A stretch of 64,000 nt of DNA from Squalus acanthias (taxonomy: Eukaryota), in NCBI GenBank assembly GCA_030390025.1, contig CM059429.1, positions 30,628,001 through 30,692,000 of the forward strand. The letters are read 5' to 3'. The notes under the pieces were generated by a model. The model saw only the letters and a list, made by a program, of their open reading frames with translations, did not search any database and was not told where the DNA came from. Of the stretch, positions 4,233-64,000 are shown piece after piece. The position numbers and the translations under genes were made by a program. How positions within the stretch are numbered: position 1 is the stretch's first letter; every line of letters starts with the position of its first letter.

Positions 4233-6222
4233 ATAAAAACAGAAAATGCTGGAAATACTCAGCCGGTCAGGCAGCATCTGTGGAGAGAGAAACAGTTAAC
4301 GTTTCAGGTCGATGACCCTTTGTCAGAACTGGAAAAAGTTAGAGATGTAACAGGTTTAAGCAAGGGCAGAGGCAGGGAAATGGGGGAGAGGAGGAAAGAA
4401 CAAAAGGGAAATCTGTGATTAAATGAGAAAATGGATGATGGTGCAAGGCAAAAGGAGGTGGTAATGGGACAAGTAAAGAAACAAAAGATGGGTCTAGAGG
4501 AACTGTAAATGGCAAAGCAGAACCATTACCAGCACCTGCTGTCCGAAAACATAGGAGCAGTGGTTATGATCTGAAATTGTTGAACTCGGTGTTGAGTGCG
4601 GAAGGCTGTAAAGTGCCTAATCGAAAGATGAGGTGCTGTTCCTCGAGCTTCCGTTGAGCTTCATTAGAACAGTGTAAGAGGTCGCGGTCAGTGTGGGAGT
4701 GGAACGGAGAATTAAAAAGGCAAGCAATCCGGAAGCTCGGGGTCACGCTTGCGGACTGAACAGAGGTGTTCAGCAAAATGATCACCCATTCTGTGTTTGG
4801 TTTCCCCAATGTAGAGGAGACCGCATTGAGAGCCGCAAATTCAGTATACGAAATTGAAAGAAGTACAAGTAAATCGCTGTTTCACCTGGAAGGAGTGTTT
4901 GGGGCCCTGGATGGTGGGAAGGGAGGAGGTAAAGGGGCAGGTGTTGCATCTCCTGCGCTTACATGGGAAGGTACCGTGGGAAGGGAAGTGGGTGTTGGGG
5001 GTGATAGAGGAGTGGACCAGGGTATCGCGGAGGGAACGTCCCTTTGGAATGCTGAAAGGGGTGGGGAAGATGCGTTTGGTGGTGGCATTGCGCTGGAAGT
5101 ATCGAAAATGTCGGAGGATGATCCGTTTAATGTGGAGGCTGGAAGGTGAGGACAAGGGACGCACCCTATTATGGTTATGCGAGGGAGGGGAAGGGGTGAA
5201 GCAGAAGTGTGGGAAATTGGACGGACACGGAGGAGGGCCCAGTCAACCACAATGGAGGGAAATCCTCAGTTGAGGAAAAAGGAAGACCTATTGGGAGCAC
5301 TGGTGTGGAAGGTGGCATCGTCAGAACAGATGCAATTGAGAAACTGGAATAGAGTCCTTACAGGAAGCAGGGTGGGAGGAAGTGTAATCACGGTAGCTGA
5401 GAGAGTCAGTGGGCTTATGATAGATATTGGTTGACAGCCTGTCCCCAGAAATGGAGACGGAGAAGTTGAAGGGAAGGGAAGAGTCAGAGATGGACCACGT
5501 GAAGGCGTGAGAGGGGTGTAAATTGGAAGCAAAGTTGATGAAATTTTCAAGTTTGAGGCAAGAGCGAGAAGTGGCACCGATACAGTCATCAGTGTACAGA
5601 AAAAGAGGTGAGGGAGGGGACCTGTGTAGGACTGGAACAAAAAATGTTCCACGTATCCCACGAGAAAGGCAGGCATAGCTAAGACCCATGCAGGTTCCCG
5701 TAGCAACACTTTTTTTATTTGGAGGAAGTGCGTGGCGTCAAAGGAGAAGTTGTTCAAAGTAAGAAGTTCAGCCAGGCGGAGGAGGGTGGTGGTGGATGGG
5801 GACCGGTTGGGCATCCGTTCAAGGAAGAAGAGGAGGGCCTGCAGGCCGTACTAGTGCGGGGTGGAGGTGTAGAGGGACTAGACGCCCATGGTGAAAAGGA
5901 GACGGTTAGGACCAGGAAATTTGAAACTGTTAAAGTGGTAGAATGCGTCGGAAGAGTTGCGTATGTCGATGGAAAGAGACTGGACAAGTTGTGATAGGAA
6001 GAGATAAGTTCCTTGAGGCAAGAACAGACTGAAACGATGGGTCTACCAAGACCGTCCTGTTTGTGGATCTTGGGAAGGAGGTAGAAGCGGGCTGTGCGTG
6101 ATTGGGGGACTGAGGTTGGAGGGAATATCTCCAGAGGATCAGTGATGGTCTGGGAAATGATGGCTTGATGTTTCGGTGGCGGAGTCATTGTCCAGGGGGA
6201 GGTAGGAGGAGGTGTTAGAGAG
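4233..6222 (-). mobile_element. Penelope-like retroelement (Neptune type), 5'-truncated and frameshifted; RT + GIY-YIG endonuclease + pLTR
   Basis: Minus-strand ORF pieces FYLLPKIHK..GRPIVS, LTLNNFSF, MGLSYACL, YTDDCI, IYHKPTDS..HP, the Cys linker CKRRRCNTC, LYIGETK and KLEEQHLIFRLGTLQP..NTEF. Confidence 0.92.
4293..4331 (-). ncRNA. Minimal type I hammerhead ribozyme motif of the PLE, with a core mutation
   Basis: Reverse complement cagtt CTGACAA ag ggtc atc gacc t GAAA cgtt aactg; CUGANGA is changed to CUGACAA, consistent with CpG decay. Confidence 0.7.
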
Positions 6223-10589: not shown

Positions 10590-10711
10590 GTATTGCCTTC
10601 AACTTCATTTGGAGCAAATTTACATGAAAGAATGAAGACTGGTTCTATATTTGAAATTACAAATGTATTTCAAATCCAGAGCATCCTGAAAATAATTTTA
10701 CTGGATATATA

Positions 10712-11246
10712 GGGCTCGATTTTGTTATTGGGGCGGGCTGGGGTCGTGTCATCCACTTTTCGTGTTAGCCACCCGACTCCAATTGGATGTGGGAGAATTA
10801 TTCGATTTTCCCATAATTGGGCAATTGAGTTCCAGCATGTGGGAACCCATGACCCAATTAGTGTTTTCAGTCTGAAAGTCGCCTCTGATGATGTCATCAT
10901 TGCTGCTGCATTGAAGGTCTGCAAAGACTGGGAAGCTTTTGGCCTTTCCTGTGAGAGGGAGGAGGAGGATATTGATGATGATTGATGATGGAGGAGGAGG
11001 AGGAGATGATGGAGATGGAGGAGGACGACGATGAGGAGGACGAGGACGACGACGTGTTAAAATCAGAAAGGCCTCTCAGAATGGGATTATAGAGGCAATT
11101 AAGTGGTTGTTAACATTTGGAAAAATTGCTCGGAGGCGGGGTCGGGCCCACCCGCCATTTTTTGCAATTTTAACACCCCACCCACCCGCCATTATTTTCA
11201 ATTTTAACATCTCACCCGCCTCCTCGGGCCTGGCAAAATCGAGCCC
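10712..11246. mobile_element. Harbinger-like MITE with an internal (GAG/GAT/GAC)n simple repeat
   Basis: Perfect 13-bp TIR gggctcgattttg / caaaatcgagccc; repeated cccgcc motifs; triplet tract at ~10955-11053. Confidence 0.8.
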
Positions 11247-11504
11247 AAAATCTCTGTTGCTGCAACACATTAGGGCTTATAATTGTAGTGGAAGTAAAAC
11301 ATTTTTAAAATACTTGAAGATTTGATAGTACCTCAAAATATTCCAAATATGGAAGTACAGTATCAAGGTGCATTTTTGATTGTGTAGTAGTTATTTAATA
11401 ACTATTACTGGGATGTGACATTCTTTAATTTATTGTACAGTAATTATTGTCTGTTACATATGAATACTGTTTGAGTGAAAGGCACTTTGTAGAGAGGTTA
11501 TGTT

Positions 11505-11885
11505 CTCCAGTGGTACAGTGGGTAAACACACTGCTTAGTGGTTATAATAAGACACAGGCCTCAATGGGCTCTTGTTTGATCGCTAGTTTGTGCTAATTTA
11601 GCTGATCTCAGTTAGGGTGTTCAACTTAACCTCAGTGACCTGAACTGGGAGAGAGGAAAACTAAGCCAGGGTTCCTGCTCCTTTTCCAGTAATTTCTTCT
11701 GGAAAGTGCGCCAGTGCGCACATCAAGTTGACAGGTCTAAGATTCCCCCAACCATCGTCAAATAGTCTACTGACACTCTCTAACTAGGCTCATGCATGAA
11801 GATGTTATTTTGGAACGGTACTGAAGTCTGCTGGCATTCATACACCTGTATTCCAGTATGAATTTACACCTTCAGGGGAGGAGAA
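11505..11885 (+). mobile_element. Old tRNA-derived SINE-like repeat
   Basis: A-box-like tggtacagtgg head, tagctgatctcag core, cttcaggggaggag end, shared with other copies. Confidence 0.6.
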
Positions 11886-11984
11886 ACAACAGGAAATTCA
11901 GGGAACATCGATTCAACAAAAACAATTTCTTGTGTGCATTCTTCATTTAAAAAGTGAACCAGAAATAATAGGGAGATAGAACTA

Positions 11985-12470
11985 ATCCAGGGAGCTATAG
12001 ATTTGTTGGCTTAACATCAGTGGTAGGAAAGATACTAGAATCCTTGCTAAAAGATCAGATAACAAAACACCTAGAGACGGAGAATATAATTTATAAAAAA
12101 CATGGATTTCTAAAAGGAAGGTCATGTTTAACCAACCTCATTGAATTCTTTGAAGTAACAGAAAGAGTAGACAGGGGCAATGCAGTGGGTGTGGTATACA
12201 TGTTCTTTCAGGCCTTTGATGAGGTTCCACGTAAGAGATTTATGACAAAGGTCAAGGCGTATGCAGTCAGGAGGCAGAATGGATTGAAAGATAGCTACAA
12301 AACAGAGGATAGGAGTTTCTCTGACTGGCAGAAAGTGAGAAGGTGTTCCGCAGGGGTTGTGCTGGGACCACTGTTCACCATATACACAAATAATTTGGAC
12401 TCAAAAATTGGAGGTATGTGTCAAAATTTGCGTATTATACCAAATTGGGGGTACAGCTAATAATGTGGAG
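11985..12470 (+). mobile_element. Degenerate CR1 ORF2 (RT) fragment
   Basis: VGKILESLLKD..HGFLKGRSCLTNLIEFF..AFDEVP..VLGPLF. Confidence 0.85.
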
Positions 12471-13493
12471 CGCTGCACACTCTCTCCCTCGCTCTCGCTC
12501 GTTTGTTCACTGATGTGCTTTACTGCCTACGCTCCCCATGGACCTCCACCTGTTACATTAACTTCATGCTCTCCTGTTCCTTTTCCCCTTCTTACTCTAT
12601 GCCTTTCCCTCCTCTTCTCCCCTCCCCTCGCTATATCTGTCTTCTCTTATCTTACCCATTCCCCTTTGTACCCTTGGTATTACTCTTCCTCCTCCCCCGT
12701 TGTCACCAGTCCTGTTCTTCATTCAGCTTCCAACAGTCACCCTCCCCCTCTCCTCGTCAGACAGAGTGCACTCTTGCTCACCTTTATCTGAGTTCAGGGG
12801 AAGGGGGAAAACGAGGAAACAGGGACACAGCTGCCACTGGCTTTGGAGCCTACTGGCTGTTATGGGGTCATCGTGGGAGGCTTGTGCCATCATGTCTTCC
12901 AGCTGCCCCTGTAGGCCCTTTGGTCCAGGAGGATTCTGATGCAGCCCCACCACAAGGTGCCTTTGCTGAAGTGAGAAGTCCGGACACCCCATTCCCATCT
13001 CGTTTACGTTCTTATACTGAACCTATACCTACTCCAGGCACAGGCCTATTGTCTTCAGGTTAGGGAGACACATTGCACCAGTTCTCTGCTCCAAGAATGT
13101 TCCCCAGGTGCAGTAAAGAGGCAAATCTCCCTTCCTTTGTCTGCGCTTCCGCCCCCCCCCCCCCAATCTGCATCTTGCCCTTCCTTTTGCTACAGTCCTC
13201 CCAGGTAATTGGCTGCAATTTGCCGCTGTTCACTTTTTTTTTTAAAGTGCCCATAGAGGTTATGCTATATTCGCTGAGTAATTTTTACTTTAGCAGATAT
13301 ACCATGAGAAAGGAAACAACTGTTTTCCTGTCGGCAAAGTGCAGGACCTTCGGAAGATGAAGGCACTGGTGTTTGTACTATACACGCTTTTAAGTGAAAG
13401 CCAGTAAACCAGTGAAACTTATCTACAGAAATAACAACAGAAAACGCTGGAAAAACTCAGCAGGCGAGGCAGCATCCGTGGAGAGAGAAACAG

Positions 13494-13531
13494 AGTTAAC
13501 GTTTCAGGTCGAAGACCTTTCATCAGAACTG
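13494..13531 (-). ncRNA. Minimal hammerhead ribozyme, intact core
   Basis: Mirror copy of 14422-14459. Confidence 0.8.
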
Positions 13532-14421
13532 GAGACAGCAGGAAATCAAATAGATTTAAAGCAAGGATAAAGCTGGGAAAAGGGGGAGGGGATAAAAGAA
13601 CAAAAGGAGAGATTAAGAGATATCAAGGCAAGAGGTGGTGTTAATGTGACAGGTTAAGGCTGAAAGAAGTGTGAAATGCACTGGCAGAATGAAGGACAGC
13701 TGCCAGCTTCTAGGAGGAAAAAAAAAGGGGGGGGGGGGGCAAATAAAAGGGTGGATGAGAAAATAAAATATAAATGTGATAGGGGCTGAGGTTATGATCT
13801 AAAATTGTTGAACTCGATGTTGAGTCCAGAGGGCTGTAGGGTGCCTAAACGAAAGATGAGGTGCTGTTCCTCGAGCTTACGCTGAGCTTCCGTGGAACAG
13901 TGTAATAGGCTGAGGACGGTGAGGTCAGAGTGGGAGTGGAGCGGAGAATTAAAGTGACAGGCGACCGGGAGCTCGCGAGCTCCCGGTCGCCTGTCACTTT
14001 AATTCTCCGCTCCACTCCCACTCTGACCTCACCGTCCTCAGCCTATTACACTGTTCCACGGAAGCTCAGCGTAAGCTCGAGGAACAGCACCTCATCTTTC
14101 GTTTAGGCACCCTACAGCCCTCTGGACTCAACATCGAGTTCAACAATTTTAGATCATAACCTCAGCCCCTATCACATTTATATTTTATTTTCTCATCCAC
14201 CCTTTTATTTGCCCCCCCCCCCCCCCTTTTTTTTTCCTCCTAGAAGCTGGCAGCTGTCCTTCATTCTGCCAGTGCATTTCACACTTCTTTCAGCCTTAAC
14301 CTGTCACATTAACACCACCTCTTGCCTTGATATCTCTTAATCTCTCCTTTTGTTCTTTTATCCCCTCCCCCTTTTCCCAGCTTTATCCTTGCTTTAAATC
14401 TATTTGATTTCCTGCTGTCTC

Positions 14422-14459
14422 CAGTTCTGATGAAAGGTCTTCGACCTGAAACGTTAACT
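14422..14459 (+). ncRNA. Minimal type I hammerhead ribozyme, intact core
   Basis: cagtt CTGATGA a aggtc ttc gacct GAAA cgtt aact: stem I agtt/aact, stem II aggtc/gacct and palindromic ACGT at stem III, as described for PLE hammerheads. Confidence 0.82.
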
Positions 14460-15315
14460 CTGTTTCTCTCTCCACGGATGCTGCCTCGCCTGCTGAGTTT
14501 TTCCAGCGTTTTCTGTTGTTATTTCGGATTTCCAGCATCTGCAGTATTTTGCTATCAAACTTATCTACAACCTTGGGAGCAGCTCAGCATGGAGGTAGGC
14601 AGCCAAGGAGGCAGGTAGCACAGGCGAGGACAGGAAGCCGCTGCTTTTCATCCACTCTTCATTATCGATTGGTTCCTCTGCTATGCTGCTGGCTGCTGCT
14701 CGCATCTTACTAAACTGGTTTTACCTGTTTGAATTCCCTGGGCTTCAGGCTATGTTCTTGCAGTCCTAATTGAGGATTTAGACCAAGACAAAAAAAGTAA
14801 GCAGCTGCCAGCAATGTGGGAGAGGACTGCAAATTTGGATTTTTAGTTGCAGATTCACAAAAATGTCCCACCTGTGGACAACATATGGTACAACAAGCAA
14901 ATAGAAAATATGCACTGTAGAGTATGGAGGAATACATACCTCATTGAGGCGTAATATTGTATGTCTATTATCATTTAATTCCCATTTTTAGTTTGATCCT
15001 AATATTGCTGGTTATATTAGTTGTGGATTAATCTATTAGATTGTGGTTTATTTGTGTGTAATTTCTGGCACTAGATGTTATAAGATCATTTATATAGTTC
15101 ACTAACACCATAAAGTGGCAGAATTGGAATTTTGCAGCAGTGAAATGAACCCCCACTGAATTGAATGTTCTGATGTAGCTGGGCCCTAGACCAATTGAAG
15201 TGTACTAGATGTTTAACCTCTAATTATTTGGCCTTTAACATTCATGAAATTAATGACGGATCACACAGCTGGCCATGCATCATGCGTATACACAATAACA
15301 ATTTTAACTTTTCAG

Positions 15316-15396
15316 AAATGAGGCCATTGGCTCCAAGAGACCTGAAACTTTGCAACTGTGGCATGATGGTGAGCGACAGCAGGCATTAAAGGAACG
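15316..15396 (+). CDS. LRCH3: LRCH3 cassette exon, 81 nt, phase 2-2 (NEAIGSKRPETLQLWHDGERQQALKER)
   Basis: ttttcag acceptor, cg|gtgagt donor; open in the frame set by the preceding exon; resembles recalled LRCH4 RRPDTLQLWQERERRQQ. Confidence 0.8.
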
Positions 15397-15445
15397 GTGA
15401 GTTCAGATTTTAAAAGAAATGATTGTTTTAAAAGGATTGTTTTAA

Positions 15446-16651
15446 CCAGTAGATGTGGTGTATTTGGACTTTCAAAAGGCTTTCGATAAGGTCCCGCATA
15501 AGAGATTAGCGTGTAAAGTTAAGGCACATGGGATTGGGGGCAAGGTATTGACTTGGATAGAGAACTGGTTGGCGGACAGAAAGCAGAGAGTAGGAATTAA
15601 TGGGTCTTTTTCCGAGTGGCAGGCAGTGACTAGTGGGGTACCGCAGGGATCGGTCCTTGGACCCCAGCTATTCACAATATACATTAATGATCTAGATAAG
15701 GGAACTAAATGTAATATCTCCAAGTTTGCAGATGACACAAAGCTGGGTGGGCGTGTGTGCTGTGAGGAGGATACCGAGAAACTCCAGTATGATTTGGACA
15801 GGTTGGGTGAGTGGGCAGAAGCGTGGCAGATGCAATATAACGTGGATAAATGCGAGGTTATCCACTTTGGTGTCAAAAACAGAAAGGCAGACTATTATCT
15901 GAATGGCAGTAGATTGGGAGAAGGGGAAATGCAACGAGACCTGGGTGTCCTTGTGCACCAGTCGCTGAAGGTAAGCATGCAGGTGCAGCAGGCGGTGAAG
16001 AAGGCAAATGGTATGTTGGCCTTCATAGCGAGAGGATTCGAGTACAGGAGCAAGGAGGTCTTGCTGCAGTTGTTCAGGGTTCTTGGTGAGACCACACCTT
16101 GAGTACTGTGTACAGTTTTGGTCGCCTTATCTGAGGAAGGATGTTCTTGCCATGGAAGGAGTTCAGCGAAGATTCACAAGGCTGATGCCTGGGATGGCAG
16201 GAATGACATATGAGGAGAGATTGGGTCGATTGGGCTTATAATCGCTGGAGTACAGAAGAATGAGAGGGGATCTCATCGAAACATATAAAATTCTGACAGG
16301 TCTGGACAAACTAGATGCAGGAAGAATGTTCCCGATGGTCGGAGAGTCCAGAACCAGGGGTCATAATCTAAGGATAAGGGGTAAGACATTTAGGACAGAA
16401 ATGAGGAAGAATTTCTTCACCCAGAGAGTGGCGAACCTGTGGAATTCTCTACCACAGAAGGTAGTTGAGGCCAAGTCATTAAATATATTCAAGAATGAGT
16501 TAGATATATTTCTTAAAGGGATCAAGGGATATGGGGAGAAGGCAGGGACAGGGTACTGAATTTGGATGATCAGCCATGATCTCATCGAATGGCGGAGCAG
16601 GCTCGAGGGGCCGAATGGCCTACTCCTGCTCCTATCTTCTATGTTTCTATG
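15446..16651 (+). mobile_element. Young 5'-truncated CR1 LINE (RT C-terminus + 3' tail)
   Basis: VYLDFQKAFDKVPH..GVPQGSVLGP..KFADDTKL..LWNSLPQ; one frameshift near 16085 and one stop; tail (ttctatgt)n. Confidence 0.95.
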
Positions 16652-54778: not shown

Positions 54779-56521
54779 ATGGAATTCCCAAAAGCTAGTC
54801 CAAGCAAAAGGAAGAGAGTGGTAACTTTAAAACAGAAAATCGTGATATGCCAATGACTAGAAAGGGGAGATAAGCGTATCAACATTATGAATGAATTCAA
54901 AATCGGTTCGTCAACAATCTACGACATCAAATCGCAGAAGGATAAGCTGCTCAAGTTTTATTCAAGCTCGGAGACATGTAAGAGTGTAGAGAAATGGCGT
55001 ACGCTTCGTAAGCCTAAGCTTGAAGAGCTGGATACTGTGCTTTATGAATGGTTTTCTCTTAAGCGTTCAGAGGGTGTTCCACTTTCTGGACCCATGCTAA
55101 TCGCGAAAGCGAAGGATTTCTACGAAAGGATGGCGCTCACTGACAAGTGTGCTTTCTCCGAGGGATGGCTAACGTGCTTCAAGTTACGGCACGGGATACG
55201 ACGACTCGATATTTCCGGGGAGAAGAAATCAGCTGATCACGACGCCGCAGAAGAATACTGCGATTATTTCAATCGGATTGTGCAGCAACATGATTTGTCG
55301 CCAGCACAGATATATAATGCCGATGAAACTGGTTTGTTTTGGAGGTTTTTGCCAGAATCAACGCTTGCTGGGGCTAGTGAGGCTAATGCTTCAGGTTACA
55401 AGAAAAATAAAGATCGTGCTAACGTGCAAACGCTGCTGGATCACACCAGGTTAAACTTCTTGTTATTGGGAAGTATAAAAATCCCCGTGCATTAAAAAAT
55501 GTGAGGCACTTACCTGTTGAGTACAAAGATCAAAAAAATGCTTGGATGGATAAGGAAATCTTCTCCGATTGGTTCCATCATATTTTAGTTCCATCTGTGA
55601 GGGAACATTTCCGTAAAATAGGGAAACCTGAAGATAGCAAATGCATTTTATTACTTGATAATTGTAGAGCCCATCCGCATGAATCCGAGTTGGTTTCGGG
55701 AAATATTTTCACCATTTATTTGCCACCAAATGTAACTTCTCTCGTACAACCCATGGACCAGGGTGTTATCCAAAATCTGAAGTGTCATTACAAGAAAGAC
55801 TTCCTACGTAAACTGATAAACCAAGATGACAATATTCACGCATTTCAGAAGGAATACAGTATTAAAGATGCCATCTATAATGTTGCATGTTCCTGGAACT
55901 TGGTGAAAGGTCACACTCTGAGGCAAGCCTGGCGCAAATTGTGGCCTTCTGTAATGTTTGCTGAAGTTTCTTCAGAGGAGGAATTTCATGGGTTCAATGT
56001 TCGTCCCAAGAAGAGTACAATAATGGAAATGGCTGGCATGGTGAAAAATGTAGGCCCAGCAAACCCTCTACGTCACCTCAGTGAAAGTGATATCAAGCAG
56101 TGGGTTGCTGCAGATAGAGAAGTTGCTGTTGTGCATATGCTAAGTGATGATGAAATAATTGAGAGTGTTTTGAATCCAAAGAAAGAAAAGGAAAGTGAGA
56201 TGGAAAGTGAAGAGGATGAGATTTCTGAAGAGAACAAAGATTTCTTGGGCTAAAGCTGCAGAAGGATTTTCTTCAATCCTCCAATTTGCTGAAAGGCAGC
56301 CTTGCTACTCTGCCCAAGAAGTTATGCAACTCCATATTCTGCATTCCACGTTTGTACAGAAAAGGCAAGAGTCCACTAAGCAAGCCGACATCCGCAACAT
56401 GTTTAAGAAAGCTTCCAAAAGAGTCGAAGCAGCGGAAGTGCCTGAAGAATCTGTGGAAGTGCATGATCCTGATGACCCAGCTGGCATGGATATTCCTGAT
56501 GAACCAGTTGACTTGGAATAA
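54779..56521 (+). pseudogene. Disrupted pogo/Tigger transposase (CENP-B-type HTH + DDE_1; JRK/TIGD2-like)
   Basis: [33 protein letters not shown], and the triad YNADETG / LLLDNC / QPMDQG. Lesions: TGA at 54854 and frameshifts near 55415 and 56230. Confidence 0.92.
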
Positions 56522-57749: not shown

Positions 57750-57944
57750 CCAGTTCCTTCCCCCAGCCTCCCACTTGCTTTTTTATCTGTTTCATTTCCT
57801 GCTTTTTTCTCAGTTCTGACGAAGGGTCTTCAACCTGAAACGTTAACTCTGTTTCTCTCTCCACGGATGTTGCCTGGCCTGCTGAGTTTTTCCAGCGTTT
57901 TCTGTTGTTATTTCAGTTTTCCAGCATCCGCAGTATTTTGCTAT
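57750..57944 (+). mobile_element. PLE pLTR/3' tail fragment
   Basis: Highly similar to 14380-14556. Confidence 0.88.
57811..57848 (+). ncRNA. Minimal hammerhead ribozyme, intact core
   Basis: cagtt CTGACGA a gggt cttca acct GAAA cgtt aact. Confidence 0.75.
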
Positions 57945-61689: not shown

Positions 61690-64000
61690 TGGATTAAGAC
61701 TTTCCTGGTTGTCTAGCAGGCAGAACTTATCATCTTGGAAAAACTTTTCTTTTAGCTCCACTTCCTCCAGATAAGAGTCGCTATGGAAACCCACATGGGT
61801 CCCAGCTGTACCTGTCTTTCTGTAGGATATGTTGAGCACTTTTTTCCCCCTCTTATTCCAGTCCCCTCTTTGATCGTTTCCCATTACATTAATGACCACG
61901 TCAGTGCTGCTTCCCTTGCCTTTACTTGGTCCATATCTGACTCTTCCCTTCCCTTCCCTTCCCTTCCTGGACTTCTCGGTCTCTATCTCTGAGGATAGGT
62001 GACTACTGACATATACTACAATAGCAAAATACTGCAGATGCTGGAAATCTGAAATAACAACAGAAAATGCTGGAAACACTCAGCAGGCCAGGCAGCATCC
62101 GTGGAGAGAGAAACAGAGTTAATATTTCATGTCTGTGACCCTTTGACTCTCTCTCTCTCCACGGATGCTGCCTGGCCTGCTGAGTGTTTCCAGCATTTTC
62201 TGTTATTTTATACTACAAGGCTCACTGACTCCCACAACTACCTGGATTATACTTCCCATTACCTTCTCCCAAATTCTCCATCGCATCTGCTCTGATGATG
62301 CCACCTTCTAAAATTATCTTTTTCCTCAGCCAAGGATTCCCCTGATAGAACTGAGTCTGATCCATTTCCCATGATTTTCCCCTTACTCTTTCTTCCCCCT
62401 CTAAGAACTGTGATAGGGTCCCCTTTGTCCTCATCTTCAACCATGCCAGCCTCCACATTCAGCAGATGATCTTCCACCATTTCCAATGTGATCCCACCAC
62501 CAAACACATGTTCCCCTCCCCTCCACTCTCAGCTTCCCTCCATGATGCCCTGGTTCACTCTTCCATTACCCCTATCACCTGCTTTCCTTCTCCTGACATC
62601 TTCTCATGCAAGTGCAGGAGATGCAACATCTGCTCATTCACCTCCTCTTTCACCGATGTCCAAAGCCCCAAACACTCCTGGGTAGACAGTAATTGTACTT
62701 CCTCCAACCTAATGTACTGTATTTGCTGCTCATAGTGCAGCCCCCTTTAAATTAAGACCAAACGCAGATTAGGTGACCGCTTTGTCAAACATATCCATTC
62801 TGTCTGCAAGTTCAACCCCAAGTTCCATGGCACTTGCCACTTTAATTCCCCATCCCGCTCCCACTCTGACTTCTGTCTTTTACCCTTCTATACTACATAG
62901 AATTACAGAGAATGTACAGCACAGAAACAGGCCATTTGGCACAACAGGTCTATGCCAGTGTTTATGCTCCACATAAACCACCTCCCACCCCTCTTCATCT
63001 AACCCTATAACCTATTCTTTTCTTCCTCATGTGTTTATCTAGCTTCCCCTTAAACGCATCTATGCTATTCGCCTCAACTACTCCTTGTGGTAGCGAGTTC
63101 CACATTCTAACCACTCTGGGTAAAGAAGTTTCTCTTGAATTCCCTATTGAATTTATTAGTGACTATCTTATATTTATGCTGTTCCAATTGAGCTCAATTC
63201 AAGTTCAAGGAACAGCACTTTATCTTTCTATTAGACAAATTGCAGCCCTCTGGCCTTACTATTGACTTTAATAACTTGAGACCATAACTTTAGCTCCCAC
63301 TTTCTCTTTGGCAGGAAGCACTGGCAATGTGGATGGGTCTACAGCCATTCTGGCGAGTGATCTGCACTATTCATGTTACATAGATATACAGCAGAGAAAC
63401 GGGCCATTTGGCCAAATGGGTCTATGTCAGTGTTTATGCTCCACACGAGCCTCCTCCTACCTTACTTCATCTCACCCTATCAACACGTCCTTTTATTAAT
63501 TTCTCCCTCATCTACTTATTTATCTATCAGGCCACCTCTCAGAGGTCTTTAAAATTATGAAATGGTTCAATAGGGTAGACGTAGAGAAGATGTTTCCACT
63601 TATGGGGAGTCCAAAACTAGGGACCATAAATATAAGATAGATGTTGACCTGTCTTTTTCTTCACCCAGGCTCCTGAGCCACTGGAGCCTGCTTTACTTTG
63701 CCAGTTTTTCATGCTGGTATTTCTACCCATCTTATCCTCCACCTCCTGAACTATTAACACATTCTCCCCATCTCATAAATATCTTTCATTTCTCTCATTA
63801 TGCCTCATTGTCTTGTGCTAATAGCACCTGCATTTAACCATCTCCTGTTTTTCACTAAAGCACTTTAGAGGACATTCTATTTCTTGTATGTGTGTGTATT
63901 ATTCCACCCCTTCCCTTTGTTCTGTTCCTTTGTAAATGCTGTTCATCTATAATAACCTCCAGTTCTGATTATAAGTCTACACCTAAAACATCAACTTGTC
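61690..64000 (+). mobile_element. Old degenerate Neptune-type PLE, interrupted by a fold-back element (62021-62208) and CR1 fragments (~62895-63180, ~63375-63640)
   Basis: METHMGPSCTCLSVGYVEH, FTWSISDSSLPF, TDSHNYLDYTS, CKCRRCNIC, ggaacagcactttatcttt; degenerate hammerhead near 63960-63996. Confidence 0.8.
62021..62208. mobile_element. Small young fold-back PLE-tail element with TSD
   Basis: ~55-bp perfect inverted arms (cagaaaatgctggaaacactcagcaggccaggcagcatccgtggagagaga); TSD tatactaca(a) at 62012 and 62209; splits the host PLE TDIYYK motif. Confidence 0.88.

Follow-up and report, generated by a model that had tools for sequence, protein, structure and literature searches.

Inverted copies are a described feature of Penelope-like elements. 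In Pen2a_Av of Adineta vaga, an adjacent inverted copy, a 31-bp tail on one side, a TSD around the unit, and palindromes at the inverted junction have been reported (PMC3846280). The layout is drawn in Fig. 2 of PMC8557442, which calls the inverted-copy arrangement typical. The formation of the inverted insertions and of the one-sided tail is called open in both PMC8557442 and PMC11167929. The latter describes in vitro work on Poseidon PAc of Anolis carolinensis, in which the Penelope protein both cleaved and extended each of the two strands. It initiates at two sites on the RNA, one at either border of the tail, and a dimer is predicted for it. Minimal hammerheads of metazoan Penelope-like elements combine a CUGAUGA/GAAA core with a 4-bp helix I, an unpaired base before helix II, and a palindromic helix III region, and opposite-strand pairs 100–700 bp apart were noted (PMC4209133). 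These minimal hammerheads are thought to need dimerization or protein help (PMC4209133, PMC11167929).

We analyzed a 64-kb window (the whole stretch of 64,000 nucleotides) of the Squalus acanthias genome that contains a palindromic insertion in the LRCH3 gene. The window palindrome is an already described layout of an abundant family. This layout, with a one-sided tail of 30–40 nt, an adjacent inverted truncated copy, and a TSD, is present in the window copy. Compared with Pen2a_Av and the layout of PMC8557442, it shares the adjacent inverted 5′-truncated copy, the TSD around the unit, the 31-nt tail on one side, and the palindrome at the inverted junction. However, both arms of the shark unit are truncated at the same base, which makes the unit in its entirety a single zero-loop palindrome of 548 bp. 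It also lacks the complete ORF and the direct pLTR of those systems. The family resembles PAc in its two 3′ end sites, which are located 31 nt apart and bound the tail; in both, genomic copies use either site and the hammerhead lies upstream of them (PMC11167929). It differs from PAc in its CX4CxxC linker, which is of the Neptune/Nematis type.

Structure, junctions and age of the insertion

The unit and the following exon contain these features (positions in the window).

13415..13427, plus strand: left TSD, 13 bp, or 14 bp if G13428 is counted as target; the empty site reads one copy and then G
13428..13975, minus strand: tail-less arm, a Penelope-like element 3′ end that stops at the inner of the two 3′ end sites of the family
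13494..13530, minus strand: left-arm minimal hammerhead motif (motif scan), which mirrors the right-arm motif and is antisense in the LRCH3 pre-mRNA
13792..13974, minus strand: last 60 codons and stop of the element ORF in the left arm, mirror of 13977–14159
13967..13984, no strand: zero-loop head-to-head junction of GGGAGCTCG and CGAGCTCCC, unique in the assembly and without microhomology to the parent
13976..14525, plus strand: tailed arm, which like the left arm is mosaic, with subfamily A over about 190 nt at the 5′ end and subfamily B over the 3′ part
13977..14159, plus strand: final 60 codons plus stop of the RT/GIY-YIG ORF, with the amino acids of the C-terminus of the 643-aa frame in parent copy L102
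14423..14459, plus strand: right-arm minimal hammerhead motif (motif scan), with a predicted cut between 14455 and 14456
14526..14556, plus strand: one-sided tail of 31 nt, of the type described in PMC3846280, PMC8557442 and PMC11167929
14557..14569, plus strand: right TSD, which reaches 14570 in the haplotype of run X1
15316..15396, plus strand: the following exon of LRCH3, which has 81 nt, preserves the frame, and is missing from one annotated catshark isoform

Alignment of the arms as reverse complements (13428–13975, 548 nt; 13976–14525, 550 nt) gave 548/548 identities. The single difference between them is a 2-nt gap in a G13/C15 run, and they meet between 13975 and 13976 with a zero loop. 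The tail is present on the right arm only. The 64-kb window contains the 13-mer AAACTTATCTACA at 13415 and 14557 and nowhere else, and the hammerhead core motifs were found at 14427 (plus) and 13526 (minus). The original prediction, which was made from the letters of this DNA, had described arms of 548 and 550 bp that differ in a homopolymer only and meet without a loop, a 31-nt tail on one side, and a hammerhead on each strand, and all of these are present. Its 13-bp TSD proved to be a true TSD but not of the final length. The base after the 13-mer is G at the empty site, and position 14570 is also G in X1; therefore, the TSD probably has 14 bp. It was probably 14 bp originally, which is the mode of the family, with a later G-to-A change in the assembled haplotype.

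The left junction was crossed by contigs of run X1 from sample S1 (13176–13450) and run X2 from sample S2 (13000–13450), and the right junction by contigs of the same two runs (X1, 14533–14978; X2, 14533–15000). The contigs of each run carry 3 substitutions relative to the assembly in about 700–900 flanking bases (about 0.4%); one of the two S. acanthias samples compared may be the assembled individual. Run X4, from the same sample as X2, gave one contig that enters the element at the junction. No empty allele was seen in X4, the sole conspecific run placed on the junction alone. Among the contigs listed for the conspecific runs, none spans the center, and the exact zero loop therefore rests on the assembly. 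A fold-back artifact, against which the original prediction had proposed a check with spanning reads, is contradicted at the outer junctions by the contigs of two samples, whereas the center depends on the assembled sequence.

We consider it very unlikely that the ends are real but that an error of the assembly or consensus produced the exact zero loop, with a short spacer lost at GGGAGCTCGCGAGCTCCC. Palindromes are hard to sequence, which would favor such an error, as would the lack of a center-spanning contig among those listed. However, the same assembly holds many neighboring units with spacers of 1–60 nt, zero-loop centers recur in it at natural palindromes, and the two arms differ in their homopolymer.

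The empty site was found in contigs of three related species (organisms C, D, and E; runs X7, X8, and X10), which match the window up to 13428 and then continue into the right flank. In the X7 and X8 contigs, 27/30 letters equal 14571–14600. The 13-mer, which the original prediction had considered might already be doubled at orthologous empty sites, is present there as one copy in all three relatives; therefore, the TSD was made by the insertion. The window copy has neither private substitutions nor a rare allele relative to other copies. The lack of a rare allele suggests that it is young, and 19/90 other long copies are equally free of rare alleles. From these comparisons, a single young insertion is likely. 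The single insertion proposed earlier agrees with this. The description "very recent" fits the absence of private substitutions but is weakened by the presence of the insertion on haplotypes about 0.4% apart in two samples and by the failure to see an empty allele in X4.

The host gene is LRCH3 on the plus strand, and an upstream exon matches shark LRCH3 proteins. P0001 was mapped exon by exon with identities of 81–100%, which confirmed the predicted intronic location and placed the host intron at about 10590 to 15315. A PDB sequence search with the CH-domain exon gave no match. The exon at 15316–15396 begins 760 nt past the tail, in agreement with the predicted distance of about 760 nt to a cassette exon. 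Of two annotated catshark sister isoforms, P0011 includes this exon, and P0012 lacks exactly this one. LINE-like fragments, which we take to be of the CR1 type, flank the insertion at about 12200 and at 15430–15800 of the window; they are 70% alike over 54 nt.

Parent family and its hammerhead motif

The 5′-truncated parent copy L102 has a 643-aa stop-to-stop frame. Pfam gave matches to RVT_1 (E 1.6e-4) and GIY-YIG (E 7e-4), both below the curated Pfam cut-offs, and a single ORF carrying RT along with a GIY-YIG endonuclease at its C-terminal end was thus found in L102. The window arm encodes the last 60 amino acids of this frame unchanged, and it gave no Pfam match when searched alone. L102 has a CCHH motif (VYCIRCSRCGLLYIG, then EH and CH), and CCHH with two cysteines between GIY and YIG is a feature of endonuclease-bearing Penelope-like elements (PMC8557442). 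Its linker between RT and endonuclease, CKRRRCNTC, reads CX4CxxC; a CX2-5CxxC linker at this place is common to Neptune and Nematis (PMC8557442). By the sequence features listed in that paper, the family belongs to the Neptune/Nematis type of endonuclease-bearing Penelope-like elements. The frame, linker, and CCHH cysteines of L102 also uphold the earlier reading of the arms as a Penelope 3′ end. A tandem arrangement was seen in 0/81 classed copies, a set without a full-length element bearing a 5′ pLTR. The stop-codon 15-mer has 8,268 genomic occurrences versus 86 for the reversed control. The family is very abundant, with about 8,000 copies that reach the stop codon.

The hammerhead motif was searched with a descriptor taken from PMC4209133. 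The right-arm motif consists of a 4-bp helix I, CUGAUGA, one unpaired base, a 5-bp helix II, and GAAAC-GUU. It has the core boxes, the short helices I and II, the unpaired base, and the palindromic helix III of the metazoan minimal hammerheads, and lacks the G10.1-C11.1 pair: in contrast to the conserved G-C, helix II begins with A-U and has 5 bp. In addition, the shark unit has one motif per strand at a distance of 900 nt, and the sense motif lies inside a predicted duplex. A 14-nt insert, a 5-bp helix II, and 4/4 helix I pairs were found in 148/185 distinct motifs of the fetched loci. An Rfam search (gathering score over the window and E-value over 14300–14600) returned no hammerhead family and one chance sRNA match. 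Judged by its sequence, the motif of the 3′ region is a minimal hammerhead like those reported in PMC4209133.

Two further family members are present in the window: a minus-strand copy at 4233–5185, which is older and about 82% identical, and, at 57756–57944, a 3′ fragment that has a tail and a variant hammerhead reading CUGACGA. The region 55071–56194 contains open frames like transposase pieces, presumably of the pogo/Tigger type.

Head-to-head units across the genome

Head-to-head junctions were counted by four pattern searches, each of which covered a 70-nt segment. The searches gave 20, 59, 12, and 21 matches, or 112 in all (controls 0, 0, 0, and 2), of which 103 were listed and examined. 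Six 34-nt matches from the fourth segment coincide with an inverted repeat that the parent has naturally; they showed no complete unit and were counted as doubtful. The rarity implied by the original prediction therefore does not hold, because a layout with 112 junctions in four 70-nt segments is a routine product of the family. Among the first 82 junction loci, 50 were two-ended and 43 were complete, TSD-flanked units. The complete units have a TSD of 13–15 bp in 37/43 cases, and their tail-less end falls inside a 7-nt window in 41/43.

An exact zero loop was found in 11/103 examined junctions (11/82 of the first loci and 0/21 of the further ones). A comparison by arm length, made to see whether zero loops are purged from long arms, gave zero loops in 9/50 short-arm and 2/32 long-arm loci (Fisher p 0.19), to which the fourth segment adds 0/21. 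Some natural palindromes in the 3′ UTR carry a zero-loop center more than once: AT three times (L067, L075, and L098), GGCC twice (L083 and L095), and AGCT twice (L047 and L089). These recurring centers belong to different subfamilies and have different TSDs, and are thus independent. A genome-wide search for palindromes with the center of the window copy had been suggested earlier; the 18-mer of this center has 1 occurrence in the 3.7-Gb assembly. MITE-like amplification of a palindromic unit was considered and rejected, because the center is unique in the assembly and the recurring centers elsewhere differ in subfamily, end positions, and TSD.

Units of similar or greater length were also found. 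L209 has arms of about 650 nt with 0/620 substitutions, a 1-nt loop, and a 16-bp TSD, and L163 has 0/705 substitutions and a 7-nt loop. L045 has a zero loop and one mismatch near the center. A 2.5-kb near-palindrome (L200, G000:C1:145506000-145510500) is 97.5% identical with an asymmetry of about 17 nt, and L231 (G000:C1:23185500-23191700) has 2,361-nt arms that are 100% identical around a 666-nt spacer. Reading by eye, we found at least six minus/plus pairs within 5 kb among the first 100 stop-codon 15-mer matches listed. All six have inverted arms of 211–2,361 nt with 96.7–100% identity. By rough extrapolation, about 500 such inverted units may be present genome-wide. This vertebrate germ line carries many near-perfect palindromes of 0.5–2.5 kb, for long enough that arms diverge. 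The single locus is an ordinary young Penelope-like insertion, useful as one clean example within a large set of natural units.

The abundance of the long pairs also bears on LRCH3. As had been predicted, the modeled fold of the LRCH3 pre-mRNA pairs the arms as one duplex, with 548 bp in place of about 550 bp and −1127 kcal/mol for the region. Within this predicted duplex, the one hammerhead that the unit has on the sense strand would be buried. It is highly improbable that the palindrome was kept because its 548-bp intronic duplex tunes the splicing, editing, or small-RNA output of LRCH3, and the ADAR or Dicer substrate suggested in the original prediction likewise found no support. The computed stability of the duplex, the frame-preserving next exon that is skipped in one catshark isoform, and the presence of the insertion in both conspecific samples would fit such a role. 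However, the insertion is absent in three relatives, and its end is located about 750 nt from the 3′ splice site. Moreover, about 500 similar long pairs are estimated genome-wide, so that some of them fall in introns by chance. We therefore treated the hammerheads and the predicted pre-mRNA duplex as passengers.

The window holds a second, short head-to-head unit at 62012–62218, with its tailed arm on the minus strand, an asymmetric center, and a TSD of about 10 bp (TATACTACAA). Older Penelope fragments adjoin it at about 62400–63300.

Formation of the head-to-head unit

In the twin priming of L1, which is said to have been put forward by Ostertag and Kazazian in 2001, both target ends reportedly prime cDNA on one RNA, and joining by microhomology leaves a 5′ inversion within a TSD. 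We propose a similar route for the shark family, in which the head-to-head unit is made by two cDNAs that are primed from both DNA ends and then joined. We assign this reading a probability of about 0.6. The endonuclease would cut both strands about 14 bp apart. Each 3′-OH would prime its own cDNA, one from the tail end and the other from a site 31 nt further in, and the two cDNAs would share a source, probably a single RNA. They would stop at their own 5′ truncation points and join through their 3′ ends, and each joined cDNA would be the template for the second strand of the other. Unequal stops would leave a spacer from the longer arm, and equal stops, usually at a natural palindrome of 2–6 nt, would leave a zero loop. 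In the window copy, both cDNAs would have stopped at the same base and been joined blunt. The second primer of L1 lands far inside, and the two parts therefore barely overlap; the shark arms would each begin no more than 31 nt from the 3′ end and therefore duplicate each other. All of these reaction steps are our reading of the observed anatomy, TSD, empty site, and family-wide pattern.

Three observations on the family favor two-ended priming. First, TSD-flanked solo copies are of both end types (18 tail-less and 13 tailed), which suggests that the two end sites are independent priming sites. An adjacent inverted arm accompanies 27 of the 81 copies whose 5′ end is visible, and a tailed arm is paired with a tail-less one in 24/27; these solo and pair shares are not unbiased, because the copies were chosen by similarity. 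The remaining three pairs have no TSD in view, and at least one of them has a tailed partner just outside the locus. Second, the tail-less arm is the longer one in 23/34 clean asymmetric units (19/26, and 4/8 from the fourth segment), as called automatically after exclusion of units with more than 3 unexplained junction bases, no TSD, or less than 4 nt asymmetry. The excess fell to this value with the fourth segment. Copying of the tailed cDNA cannot give longer tail-less arms, because a copy cannot exceed its template. Third, exact symmetry was found in 11/82 junctions, versus 1.4% expected for independent uniform stops. The symmetric centers lie on a palindrome of the parent of at least 2 nt in 11/12 cases and of at least 4 nt in 6/12. 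Such palindromic centers fit the annealing of two like 3′ ends, because a zero-nt loop cannot fold within one strand.

The end types, the asymmetry and symmetry data, and the activities reported in PMC11167929 together lead us to favor twin priming. The in vitro support comes from a Poseidon-clade element, and its description, as available, does not include palindromic products (PMC11167929). A more specific version, which we hold at slightly better than even odds, is that a dimer primes a cDNA from each strand at a cut with a 14-bp stagger, that the two cDNAs begin at different ones of the two start sites bounding the tail, and that they complete each other's second strand. If two-ended target priming is true, it would account for the inverted copy, the one-sided tail, and the zero-loop palindromes in one step. 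The fixed pairing of end types, the spacers from either arm, and the palindromic microhomology seen in the census make a specific model that can be tested in the existing in vitro system, and the hundreds of units in this shark genome could serve as test cases. Searches of openly accessible full texts returned no twin-priming account for Penelope-like elements.

According to the original prediction, one cDNA snapped back at a self-complementary GAGCTC. GAGCTC is indeed present, and other palindromes of the family center on AGCT, GGCC, CCGG, or GGGCCC. However, a snap-back at this site predicts the center GAG/CTC, and the observed center is CTCG/CGAG with both GAGCTC copies intact, which snap-back could give only if untemplated bases were added ad hoc. 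The parent has CCC upstream in 67/70 matching copies, and its commonest sequence at the center, GGGGACCC followed by CGAGCTCCC, has no microhomology to the observed center. An intramolecular fold also needs a loop, and snap-back cannot give longer tail-less arms in 23/34 units. We regard this route as scarcely credible.

For the palindromes at inverted junctions of rotifer Penelope elements, self-priming on an antisense RNA template was proposed (PMC3846280). This published reading might extend to the shark, where antisense RNA of many copies could arise from read-through of the LRCH3 kind. By itself, however, it does not predict that one end is tailed and the other tail-less within a 14-bp TSD, or that spacers come from either arm, and it appears improbable as the route to these units.

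The window copy is less straightforward for twin priming than the family as a whole. It is the only one of 12 symmetric centers without microhomology. Both of its arms carry 7/7 markers of subfamily A in the 5′ part and 12/12 of subfamily B in the 3′ part, a mosaic that occurs in 0/114 other long copies; no sibling above 97% identity was found among the best 40 of 2,271 candidates. Twin priming of this copy needs an unseen mosaic source RNA, whereas copying of one arm from the other explains the shared mosaic directly. When 24 pairs were compared as a test for two different RNA templates, in no case did the two arms clearly differ in subfamily; 17 pairs have 0 diagnostic differences and 7 have 1–4.

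Therefore, for the window copy, the second arm may have been copied from the first cDNA, by fold-back or by an end-to-end jump onto DNA, or the arms may have been equalized by later gene conversion, with the tail-less end set by endonuclease cleavage or by a stop at the inner site. We consider this unlikely, though it carries real weight. It would explain the mosaic common to both arms and the center without microhomology. It also fits the 0 inter-arm substitutions at a flank difference of about 0.4%, for which we estimate that about 2 would be expected and that the chance of 0 is about 0.13. An origin of the tail from endonuclease-mediated resolution has been suggested (PMC8557442). As a general route, however, arm copying conflicts with the longer tail-less arms in 23/34 units and with the existence of solo tail-less copies with TSDs, both of which agree with priming from two ends. 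Conversion is not general either, because older pairs diverge arm to arm; L161, for example, has 24/726 differences, mostly private changes.
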